This document shows, in pieces, positions 24,476 to 25,863 of a stretch of DNA of 32,000 bases. Source of the stretch: Candidatus Saccharibacteria bacterium oral taxon 488 (GTDB lineage Bacteria > Patescibacteriota > Saccharimonadia > Saccharimonadales > Saccharimonadaceae); assembly GCA_010202845.1 (NCBI GenBank), contig CP047921.1, positions 330,001 to 362,000 of the forward strand, read 5' to 3'. The notes beneath the pieces are model-generated. The model saw nothing but the letters and a program-made list of their open reading frames with translations, was not told where the DNA came from and searched no databases. The stretch's first letter is position 1; each line of letters begins with the position of its first letter. The translations under genes were made by a program, and so were the position numbers.

Positions 24476-25357
24476 ATGCCGAGTACTCGTGCGCTGAAAA
24501 ATCGCATTCGCTCGGTGGATTCGACCAAGCAAATCACCAAGGCGATGCAGCTCGTAGCCGCTAGCAAGATGCGTCGTTCGCAAGAAGCGGACAAGGCCTC
24601 GGCTCCCTACACTATGGCAGCCGAGGAGCTGCTGAGCTACTTGGCCAGCCAGGGTGCAACTGATAATCACCCACTGTTTAAGCGCCGCAAAATTACCAAG
24701 CGTCTAATTATCGTCATTGCCAGCGACAAAGGCCTAGCCGGCGCATATAACACCAATGTCCTGAAGAAATATCTGGAGTTACTGAAGCGTGATGATGAGC
24801 GCGGCATCGAGAACTTGACCTTGACCATCGGCCGTCGGGCTTCGCAATTTGCCTCGCGTCTGAAGGATACGAAGATTATCGGTACGTACGAAGATTTGCC
24901 AGATCAGCCGTCGGGACTGACCTTTCATACGATTTTGAACACCGCCATCAGTATGTTTGAAAATGGCGAGGTTGATGCGGTGACGCTGGTGTACACGCGG
25001 TTTGTCAATAGCATGGTGCAGACAGCGGAGCTGTCGCGCTTGCTGCCGGCGGGCACCAAGGCACTGATTGATCCGAGCGAGGTCTCGAACACGGTTTCTG
25101 ATGCCAAGTACGAGCCGAGCATCCCGGAAGTGCTGGACGCCGTGGCGAATCGTTTGACGGGCGCGCGATTGCTGCAGGCGTTGCTGGACGCTCGCGCCAG
25201 TGAGCACTCTATGCGGATGATGGCTATGAAGAATGCGACGGACAATGCGTCTGATCTGGTGGATGACTTGACGCTAGCGATGAACAAAGCCCGCCAAGGT
25301 GCGATCACCCAGGAATTGGCAGAAATTTCTGGCGGCGTGGAGGCGATGGAACAATGA
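24476..25357 (+). CDS. atpG: F0F1 ATP synthase subunit gamma
   Basis: N-terminal IRSVDSTKQITKAMQLVAASK and C-terminal ARQGAITQELAEI. Confidence 0.94.
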   Translation: MPSTRALKNRIRSVDSTKQITKAMQLVAASKMRRSQEADKASAPYTMAAEELLSYLASQGATDNHPLFKRRKITKRLIIVIASDKGLAGAYNTNVLKKYLELLKRDDERGIENLTLTIGRRASQFASRLKDTKIIGTYEDLPDQPSGLTFHTILNTAISMFENGEVDAVTLVYTRFVNSMVQTAELSRLLPAGTKALIDPSEVSNTVSDAKYEPSIPEVLDAVANRLTGARLLQALLDARASEHSMRMMAMKNATDNASDLVDDLTLAMNKARQGAITQELAEISGGVEAMEQ

Positions 25358-25863
25358 GTGTGTATTTTGCTTGCTACGATGAAGATCAGCTCTCAGGAAA
25401 AGTATCCTTGCGCACTGAAGCTATCCAGCGAACTAAACGGGGTATTTTGGATAAAAATTTAACAATTGATAGAATCATTACTTCACCGCTTCTTGTTGCA
25501 AGGGCTGCCGCTAAGGAAATAGCTCAAACGGCTGGATCCGATGATGTACAAATTAGTTTTGATGAGCGATGGCTGGATTTTGATATCGACGCACTAATGT
25601 ACTGGTTGAGAAATGGGTGGCACGGTAAATCCCCGAGACCAGAGCGTGAGCTCAGGCCGCTAGATAAGATATTAACAACTATCACATCTGCCTATGAGGA
25701 TGTAGTTCGTTTTCCCGGAGTTACTCTCATCATTAGCAATAGCGAGGTGTATAAATTTTTGCAAGCATATATACAGAGATTATCTATTGATGAAGTGGCA
25801 TCGCTAAAAGGTATTAAGAATGGCGAGATAATCGAGATAGTAAAAGGAGGAATTGATGAGTAA
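25354..25863 (+). CDS. hypothetical protein; SixA/histidine-phosphatase-like fold with catalytic residues replaced (pseudo-phosphatase), embedded in the atp operon
   Basis: 169-aa ORF. Its ATG overlaps the atpG TGA (ATGA at 25354-25357), and its last 8 nt overlap atpD. The SD of atpD (AAAGGAGG, 25843-25850) lies inside it. Pattern VYFACYDED...[16 protein letters not shown]...[14 protein letters not shown] parallels SixA VFIMRHGDA...IERVLVSPFLRAEQT...VLVISHLPLVGYL, with RHG changed to CYD and SH changed to SN. GC is low (30-43% on sampled lines, against about 57% in atpG). Confidence 0.65.

Follow-up and report, generated by a model that had tools for sequence, protein, structure and literature searches.

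A pseudo-phosphatase gene as probable swappable cargo within the ATP synthase operon of Saccharibacteria

The atp operon is a textbook case of fixed gene order and of tuned, translationally coupled stoichiometry. In the stretch of DNA analysed here (the window; 32,000 nucleotides (nt) of contig CP047921.1, positions 330,001 to 362,000), an open reading frame (ORF) of 169 codons, termed ORF X, lies between atpG and atpD, the genes for the gamma and beta subunits of F1. The encoded protein is identical to QHU93765.1 (GWK78_01820), which is annotated as 'hypothetical protein' in Candidatus Saccharibacteria bacterium oral taxon 488. ORF X is probably swappable accessory cargo of a variable slot in the operon and no component of the ATP synthase; the same explanation has it originate from a phosphatase that settled in the slot, spread recently between diverged genomes, and serve as a non-catalytic binder.

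The atpG-atpD junction as a cargo slot

ORF X is a real gene and no chance ORF. It is wedged between atpG and atpD and coupled to its neighbours at both ends, as an earlier reading made from the sequence alone (the sequence-only reading) had described: its start codon is fused with the atpG stop as ATGA, its TAA stop (25861-25863) falls within codons 2-3 of atpD (ATG at 25856), for an overlap of 8 nt, and the Shine-Dalgarno (SD) sequence of atpD is inside its 3' end (Table 1). The foreign look that the sequence-only reading noted is borne out by composition and by divergence. The guanine-plus-cytosine (GC) content of ORF X is 0.410 (0.353 at third codon positions, GC3), compared with 0.551 for atpG, 0.549 for atpD and 0.543 for the whole window, and its synonymous divergence among carriers is more than 10-fold below that of atpG and atpD. 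The frame is intact in 14 loci (the window and 13 genomes or contigs) and is found at the same place, 94-99% identical, in eight GTDB species representatives, two of which are complete genomes. The 90% identity cluster of ORF X comprises 240 sequence variants on hundreds of contigs, with 14 of the 15 listed members having 169 amino acids (aa). A 67% identical ortholog, P0002 (168 aa, locus L001), occupies the same position with the same overlaps in a genome whose gamma and alpha subunits are only 63% and 82% identical to those of the window; between these two lineages ORF X is better conserved (67%) than gamma (63%) or epsilon (65%).

The sequence-only reading had proposed a survey of atpG-atpD junctions in relatives, and such a survey finds ORF X there among other cargo. 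Using gamma alone as query, 80 further loci were drawn from metagenomes, and 73 loci hold both atpG and atpD. The gap between the two genes ranges from 9 to 1690 nt: 37 of the 73 junctions have the canonical 9-60-nt spacer and are empty, and the other 36 have 83-1690 nt of extra sequence with ORFs on the + strand. The order atpA-atpG-atpD, taken at the outset to be almost invariant in bacteria, is not so in this phylum, and, judged from these junctions, the slot appears to be filled in about half of the sampled Saccharibacteria-like lineages.

The content of the slot varies among close relatives. In loci with gamma at least 92% identical to that of the window, the slot may be empty with a gap of 13-14 nt (L023, L030, L032, L035, L036, L041, L095) or may carry ORF X, a phosphatase with a membrane protein, a phosphatase with a NUDIX protein and a 207-218-aa protein (P207), NUDIX with P207, NUDIX alone, or a 126-aa nucleoside 2-deoxyribosyltransferase-like (NDT-like) protein (PF05014, 31.5 bits). 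The number of cargo genes per strain thus runs from three down to none. Intact histidine phosphatases occupy this position in L013, L016-18, L022, L025 and L100. The full-length proteins most similar to ORF X are intact slot phosphatases of 185-189 aa, with the start MSVYFVRHGES and a later VVSHNG, that begin at the same ATGA. In L016-L018 the gene after the phosphatase encodes a 151-aa multi-pass membrane protein, in L013 a NUDIX hydrolase, and L100, a contig from an environmental metagenome, has the arrangement atpG-phosphatase-atpD. The alpha, gamma, beta and epsilon subunits of L016-L018 are 98-100% identical to those of the window, while the phosphatase is only 28% identical to ORF X; the exchanged portion is delimited as the cassette-specific block in Table 1.

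The junctions follow a common geometry in the oral clade, defined here as loci with atpG at least 82% identical to that of the window. The first cargo gene starts at the ATGA of the atpG stop or slightly upstream, and this landing pad serves ORF X, histidine phosphatase, NUDIX and NDT-like cargo and is also present in empty-slot strains. The last 24 nt of atpG, GGCGTGGAGGCGATGGAACAATGA, contain GGAGG 10 nt upstream of the ATG that is employed by the first cargo genes. Successive cargo modules overlap or abut via an SD-ATG junction, and modules end in a shared motif, GGAGGAA(A/T)..TTG followed directly by ATG, which at atpD reads GGAGGAA..TTG followed by ATGAGTAAAA and includes the SD of atpD. 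The last cargo gene stops on ATGAGTAAA of atpD, its TAA being formed by atpD codons 2-3, and many cargo proteins end in G-E-x-(D/N)-E for this reason. The beta subunit starts with MSK in all occupied-slot strains and with MAKDL in empty-slot oral-clade strains (atpG at least 92% identical).

At the empty-slot junction ATGATAAAGGAGAAAAAGATGGCAAAAG (L023, L030, L032, L041, L095) the ATGA start codon shares its reading frame with atpD, and initiation at this codon would add MIKEKK to beta (MIKENK in L023). The in-frame ATGA at empty junctions implies that the coupling landing pad predates any cargo.

The location of ORF X, flanked by the gamma and beta genes and coupled to both, is what would be expected of an accessory, regulatory or assembly subunit of F1, for example an inhibitor that senses nucleotides or phosphate and is produced together with these two subunits, and such a role had been raised by the sequence-only reading. 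The position is retained in a distant lineage with a gamma only 63% identical, ORF X has been under long-term purifying selection, and other slot cargo acts on nucleotides (NUDIX, NDT-like, histidine phosphatase), which could hint at a link to the adenylate pool. The comparative data disagree. In strains with alpha, gamma and beta 95-99% identical, the slot is empty (L023, L030, L095) or holds unrelated cargo (L016, L022, L026, L029); no flank residues co-vary with ORF X save the first atpD codons, which overlap the cassette end; ORF X has travelled between genomes independently of the atp genes; and a cultured relative can do without its ATP synthase altogether (PMC10633639). ORF X is not co-inherited with the ATP synthase, being absent beside near-identical synthases and having a history that differs from that of its flanks. 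Since near-identical synthases have an empty slot or other cargo, ORF X is neither required by nor co-evolved with this ATP synthase, and a role as an F1 subunit is very unlikely.

More distant Saccharibacteria-like loci harbor other unrelated slot ORFs of 42-190 aa, some of which are conserved between contigs. Small slot ORFs of 58-70 aa on soil or rhizosphere contigs (L054 3501-3713, L056 4370-4582, L098 2972-3148), with gammas only 59-65% identical to that of the window, share the motif PGSF(G/S)S(M/W)NV(V/M)D…(E/F)EQSL and look like a conserved, slot-specific small protein family. A further distant lineage has two-gene cargo (L063 4385-5478, L067 2876-3981) in which a 174-177-aa multi-pass membrane protein comes first; the second gene encodes a 189-aa protein 32% identical to the oral P207 in L063 and an unrelated 191-aa membrane protein in L067.

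A literature search, which did not extend to most subscription journals, turned up no report of a gene lying between atpG and atpD, nor of insertions into the atp operon of Saccharibacteria. This agrees with the view of the sequence-only reading that no such operon had been described, although sequence data show the arrangement to be common in Saccharibacteria. A cargo slot of this kind among the F1 genes, built of modules, coupled in translation and variable between strains, appears to be an undescribed setting.

The cassette has a history of its own. Mean synonymous divergence (dS) among the 14 ORF X carriers is 0.042 for ORF X, 0.70 for atpG and 0.42 for atpD, and the more than 10-fold difference from the flanks indicates that ORF X has recently spread by recombination between diverged genomes. 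The low-diversity block in Table 1 marks the recently exchanged segment together with short, generally conserved arms. Clustering of the loci on atpG or atpD sequence away from the junction interleaves carriers of ORF X, of other cargo and of an empty slot, and the nearest relative of the window's atpD belongs to a strain with the phosphatase and membrane-protein cargo. The cassette has no integrase, attC-like site or terminal repeat, the repeats found there being only 10-16 nt long and at chance level, and no recombinase gene is present among the genes of the operon neighbourhood. An integron- or transposon-type element was considered and is ruled out, as the repeats are at chance level only and the module ends share just the SD-ATG motif. 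A 10-nt inverted repeat, 90% complementary, lies near the cassette ends (25362-25371 and 25859-25868; GTATTTTGCT and AGTAAAATAC) and is probably fortuitous, since the right end reads AGTAAAACAC in most other carriers. Saccharibacteria have natural competence and use homologous recombination to integrate DNA, and transposon-insertion sequencing (Tn-seq) in Southlakia showed all F-type ATP synthase genes to be dispensable (PMC10633639). Competence and the dispensability of the F-type ATP synthase make both the exchange route and the tolerance of insertions in the atp operon plausible.

Turnover of cargo between close strains and the recent cross-species spread of ORF X could also reflect conflict with other strains, phages or hosts, with ORF X serving effectors of the phosphatase or NUDIX type as a decoy that lacks activity or as an immunity partner. 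The slot NUDIX protein matches a candidate defence family, PDC-S07 (PADLOC, E = 3e-13), and NUDIX and deoxyribosyltransferase-like folds recur in nucleotide-centred conflict systems. The match to PDC-S07 may, however, reflect the generic NUDIX fold only. Apart from NUDIX, none of the cargo, ORF X, the intact phosphatase and the NDT-like protein included, has a PADLOC match; ORF X stands alone with no partner gene; and no toxin-like or secretion signal was identified. A role in conflict is exceedingly unlikely.

Active-site loss, origin and selection

The assignment of ORF X to the histidine phosphatase superfamily, branch 1, rests on transitive homology, to which a structure model adds support. 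ORF X alone scores 14.7 bits against the Pfam family His_Phos_1 (PF00300), below the cut-off of 21.7 (E = 0.025), while P0002 scores 24.8 bits, above the cut-off, over profile positions 43-179. A profile built from X-type sequences only and searched against 1.8 billion proteins retrieves only small canonical histidine phosphatases, at E = 2e-6 to 1e-3; these are 172-187 aa long and have the motifs RHGES and SH(A/N)G. Sequence searches of PDB chains with ORF X and with the X-type profile gave nothing meaningful, and ORF X has only sub-threshold matches in NCBIfam, to the archaeal dPGM and CobC models.

An AlphaFold2 (AF2) model of ORF X was built on a 116-sequence alignment consisting mostly of canonical family members; a model from a three-sequence alignment, with a predicted local distance difference test score (pLDDT) of 45.6, was discarded in its favour. 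The retained model is confident and compact (pLDDT 82.5; predicted TM-score, pTM, 0.81), and Foldseek matches it to PhoE, dPGM, CobC and enzymes related to them with probability 1.0 and query-normalised TM-scores of 0.62-0.71, the best matches being 1h2e, 1rii, 9mmh and 3hjg (probability 1.0, TM-score 0.66-0.71, query-normalised). This was the fold check that the sequence-only reading had called for, and it returns the histidine-phosphatase fold; a column-by-column comparison, in turn, confirms the catalytic losses. The branch-1 fold proposed by the sequence-only reading therefore stands, but SixA as its specific template does not, the similarity being generically PhoE-, CobC- and dPGM-like. 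Neither ORF X nor P0002 matches the sixA model (TIGR00249), and even the intact slot phosphatase, which fits the CobC and archaeal dPGM models better, reaches only 36.1 bits where the cut-off is 74.5.

For the active site, ORF X was compared column by column with 113 family members, and the columns given here are 97-100% conserved in the family. Eleven of these columns are altered in ORF X. They include R7 and the nucleophile H8, which are Cys and Tyr in ORF X and are kept as Arg and His in P0002, and R48, which is Val in ORF X and Asp in P0002. At the remaining columns ORF X and P0002 share the replacement: G9 to Asp, N14 to Ser, T52 to Ala, E75 to Asp, G79 to Asp, E101 to Arg, R109 to Thr and H129 to Asn. 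The N-terminal motif of P0002 is accordingly R-H-D. In addition, about 12 residues past strand 1 are deleted in ORF X, two invariant Gly among them. The change of RHG to CYD and of the second catalytic His to Asn, both noticed in the sequence-only reading, is confirmed by the alignment, and its expectation that the protein is inactive as a phosphatase is supported by losses that exceed those it listed (R7C, H8Y, N14S, R48V, E75D, H129N). Its pairing of 'LLVARAAA' with the SixA segment 'FLRAEQT' was offset by two residues: the invariant Arg column is occupied by Val48, and the Arg of ORF X, R50, lies two residues past it. ORF X is thus well supported, from its residues, as a catalytically dead pseudo-phosphatase in which canonical catalysis through a phosphohistidine intermediate should be impossible. 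P0002 keeps R7 and H8 and has the other columns changed; hence the pocket was crippled before the two X lineages split, and the change of RH to CY came later in the lineage of the window.

The likely ancestor of ORF X, as judged from sequence comparison, is an intact histidine phosphatase resident in the same slot. Ranked by distance, the nine nearest non-X relatives of the window ORF X and P0002 are all slot-resident phosphatases. ORF X is 30% identical to slot phosphatases and 22% identical to other family members, and it shares with the slot phosphatases the MSVYF start, the D(E/Q)RW and G(T)WH motifs and the NGEIxEI C-terminus. A midpoint-rooted neighbour-joining tree failed to place ORF X on account of its long branch, and the placement given here relies on distances and motifs instead. 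Identity to the rest of the family is 22% for ORF X and 34% for the slot phosphatases, and this greater distance indicates accelerated change on the ORF X stem. That ORF X might be a positional ortholog of the sister strains' intact phosphatase that degenerated recently is rejected as to its recency, as the distant lineage L001 has the X type with most of the losses. Elsewhere in the sample, locus L101 (1-3358) encodes a Patescibacteria isoleucyl/valyl-type tRNA synthetase product of 1200 aa with an internal His_Phos_1 match; an HD-domain gene comes next, and then a small, free-standing histidine phosphatase (P0071).

ORF X is under purifying selection over deep time, as estimated from the comparison of the window with L001 (P0002): the nonsynonymous divergence (dN) is 0.20 and dS about 1.4, which gives a dN/dS of 0.14, with a single one-codon indel and no stop.

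The observations may be arranged into the following history. Slot ORFs, whose coupling geometry is directly visible at the junctions, would be transcribed from the atp promoter and translated by coupling. An active phosphatase would have settled in the slot, and one lineage would have lost catalysis and diverged fast, with N14, R48, E75 and H129 presumably lost first and R7 and H8 later, in the lineage of the window. After this fast divergence ORF X would have been stabilised and kept by purifying selection, and its cassette would recently have swept diverged oral Nanosynbacter-like genomes, displacing other cargo. The most likely route would be natural transformation followed by homologous recombination via the atpG 3' and atpD 5' ends, which are short and highly conserved. 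ORF X itself may be a non-catalytic binder of a phospho-ligand, a nucleotide or a partner protein, with a benefit independent of the ATP synthase.

Several points weigh against this account. The binder role is a deduction held with modest confidence. The recombination mechanism is drawn from diversity patterns, with no donor, integrase or repeat identified, and the taxonomy of the distant metagenomic loci is taken only from their 59-70% atpG identity. The fold match is partly by construction, as the alignment is family-dominated, and the model is supportive rather than independent. Selection within the recent ORF X clade looks weak, with a dN/dS of 0.36-0.41 and 37 variable sites spread 11:10:16 over the codon positions. 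Finally, two fragments, P0003 (73 aa) and P0004 (72 aa), match ORF X residues 1-62 and about 111-169, respectively, with out-of-frame sequence at the junction, which suggests a disrupted ORF X allele (deleted or frameshifted) in at least one assembly, or an assembly error.

The last two points would also fit a functionless, decaying phosphatase remnant, whose frame persists through the youth of the cassette or because a frame bridging atpG to atpD aids the coupling of beta. All core catalytic residues are gone from ORF X, selection in the recent clade is relaxed with a near-uniform codon-position spread, the fragments suggest a broken allele, and cargo that varies from three genes to none by strain appears dispensable and turns over. 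Decay is difficult to reconcile with the low dN/dS at a dS of about 1.4, the single one-codon indel and the lack of any stop between the window and L001, or with conservation that exceeds that of gamma and epsilon between lineages. Nor does it readily account for the 240 cluster variants with 14 of 15 listed members at full length or for a predicted fold that is confident and compact, and atpD has its own strong SD, so that a bridging ORF serves no obvious need. A functionless remnant is therefore unlikely.

A variant of the cargo explanation ties the cargo to the substrate pool of F1, such that nucleotide-processing modules are made in a fixed ratio with F1 and ORF X is a phospho-nucleotide sensor or sequesterer, possibly an F1 modulator; such a tie is quite unlikely. 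Cargo with a benefit of its own, independent of the ATP synthase, remains the preferred explanation.

The surrounding operon

The operon is of the F type and complete, and it runs from an atpI/AtpZ-like gene to atpC (Table 1). A scan for promoters and terminators found no terminator-like site inside or next to ORF X and only a weak promoter-like site (9/12) within it, and ORF X is taken as co-transcribed on these grounds. A hairpin is located 3' of atpC (27719-27754). An Rfam search returned only sub-threshold, chance-level snoRNA matches.

Table 1. Features of the atp operon and of ORF X in the window (coordinates of the window; catalytic columns numbered by ORF X codon)
Feature	Position	Strand	Remarks
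Whole operon	20367..27704	+	atpI/AtpZ-like (PF09527), atpB, atpE, atpF, atpH, atpA, atpG, ORF X, atpD, atpC
atpI/AtpZ-like gene	20367-20759	+	PF09527, profile match
atpG	24476..25357	+	F1 gamma, 293 aa, PF00231
ORF X	25354..25863	+	169 aa/codons; degenerate histidine phosphatase (branch 1) homolog, between atpG and atpD
ATGA overlap	25354..25357	+	ORF X start codon fused with atpG stop
Low-diversity block	25320..25917	+	11 carriers; nucleotide diversity (pi) about 0.00-0.06, mostly <0.03, versus about 0.04-0.19 in flanks
Cassette-specific block	25372..25846	+	identity to L016 (gamma and beta 98-99% identical to the window's) ~90% through atpG, near random inside, back at 25846
Codons 7-9	25372..25380	+	Cys-Tyr-Asp replacing family Arg-His-Gly (His = nucleophile; R, H and G in 100% of 113)
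Codon 48	25495..25497	+	Val at invariant phosphate-binding Arg column (SPLxRAxxTA)
Codon 129	25738..25740	+	Asn at invariant second catalytic His column (VSHxG to ISNSE)
atpD Shine-Dalgarno, AAAGGAGG	25843..25850	+	within ORF X 3' end (…K-G-G-I-D-E, stop), 5 nt upstream of atpD ATG
atpD	25856..27274	+	F1 beta

Variation is also seen elsewhere in and around the operon. The delta subunit gene atpH (window 22401-22937) is hypervariable: its product is 41-59% identical in L023, L095, L029 and L026, whose alpha, gamma and beta are 95-99% identical, and 74-94% identical in other strains, with lengths from 125-129 aa up to 178 aa. The gene may mark a further part of the operon that is mosaic or has been exchanged. 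Epsilon varies too, at 82-98%. Between atpC and dus lies a 267-aa ORF with no Pfam match and a GC content of 38-45% (window 27798-28601, - strand), and sister strains have different ORFs of 136, 280, 269 or 95 aa in this interval, which looks like a second variable site adjoining the operon. The dihydrouridine synthase (Dus) gene itself (window 28598-29851, - strand) encodes 417 aa; the Dus domain ends near residue 252, and beyond it the C-terminus is drawn out into a long extension of low complexity, rich in Ser, Ala and Glu. The homologs in sister loci are 278-376 aa long. Farther upstream, window 15840-17688 (- strand) has a GC content of about 45%, against 54% for the window, and its three ORFs (143, 189 and 159 aa) match nothing in Pfam; it may be an accessory island.

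Comparison with known systems

The unsurprising part of these results is that the histidine phosphatase superfamily gains in ORF X one more degenerate member; inactive members of the superfamily are known. In a phylum of ultra-small epibionts, the gamma-beta junction is routinely opened as an expression site for swappable accessory genes, and exchange of the slot genes between species outpaces the divergence of the core genes on either side. The slot provides a compact system in which the gain, stacking, inactivation and sweep of accessory genes can be followed in extremely reduced genomes, and it holds an evolutionary series whose stages are an active phosphatase, a partly degraded form and a pseudoenzyme that is fully dead yet selected. 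It may also offer a natural 'safe harbour' and expression site for genetics in the now-transformable Saccharibacteria. A caution against inferring function from operon position follows as well: ORF X resembles an F1 subunit by its place, and the comparative data disagree.

Among known enzymes, branch 1 of the histidine phosphatases (PF00300; PhoE/YhfR 1h2e, CobC 3hjg/6nru, dPGM 1rii/1e58) has the same predicted alpha/beta fold as ORF X. The two share the Y-F-x-R-H-x-E start (in P0002), the S-P-L motif, the L-I-V-S-x core strand and a C-terminal N-G-E, and they differ in that His8, Arg7, Arg48 and His129 are Tyr, Cys, Val and Asn in ORF X, from which about 12 residues are deleted. SixA (TIGR00249), the template of the sequence-only reading, is like ORF X a small, single-domain branch-1 protein of similar size, but no specific relationship between the two is seen, as the sixA model matches neither ORF X nor P0002. 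Pseudoenzymes in general likewise lack catalytic residues, keep a fold (here a predicted one) and are subject to purifying selection; ORF X differs from them by its setting inside an ATP synthase operon.

Among known gene arrangements, atpI and AtpZ/'ATPase_gene1' (PF09527) are likewise small non-core ORFs co-transcribed with the atp genes. These are broadly conserved membrane proteins encoded upstream of atpB, whereas the slot cargo lies between gamma and beta, consists mostly of soluble enzymes or unknowns, and is strain-variable. Core-gene-flanked transfer hotspots and integron cassettes likewise gather unrelated, modular, promoter-less genes at a fixed site and express them from an upstream promoter. 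The atpG-atpD slot differs from them in that no integrase, attC-like repeats or other mobile-element features were found, it lies inside an operon, its modules are coupled by a shared SD-ATG junction, and exchange apparently proceeds by ordinary homologous recombination.

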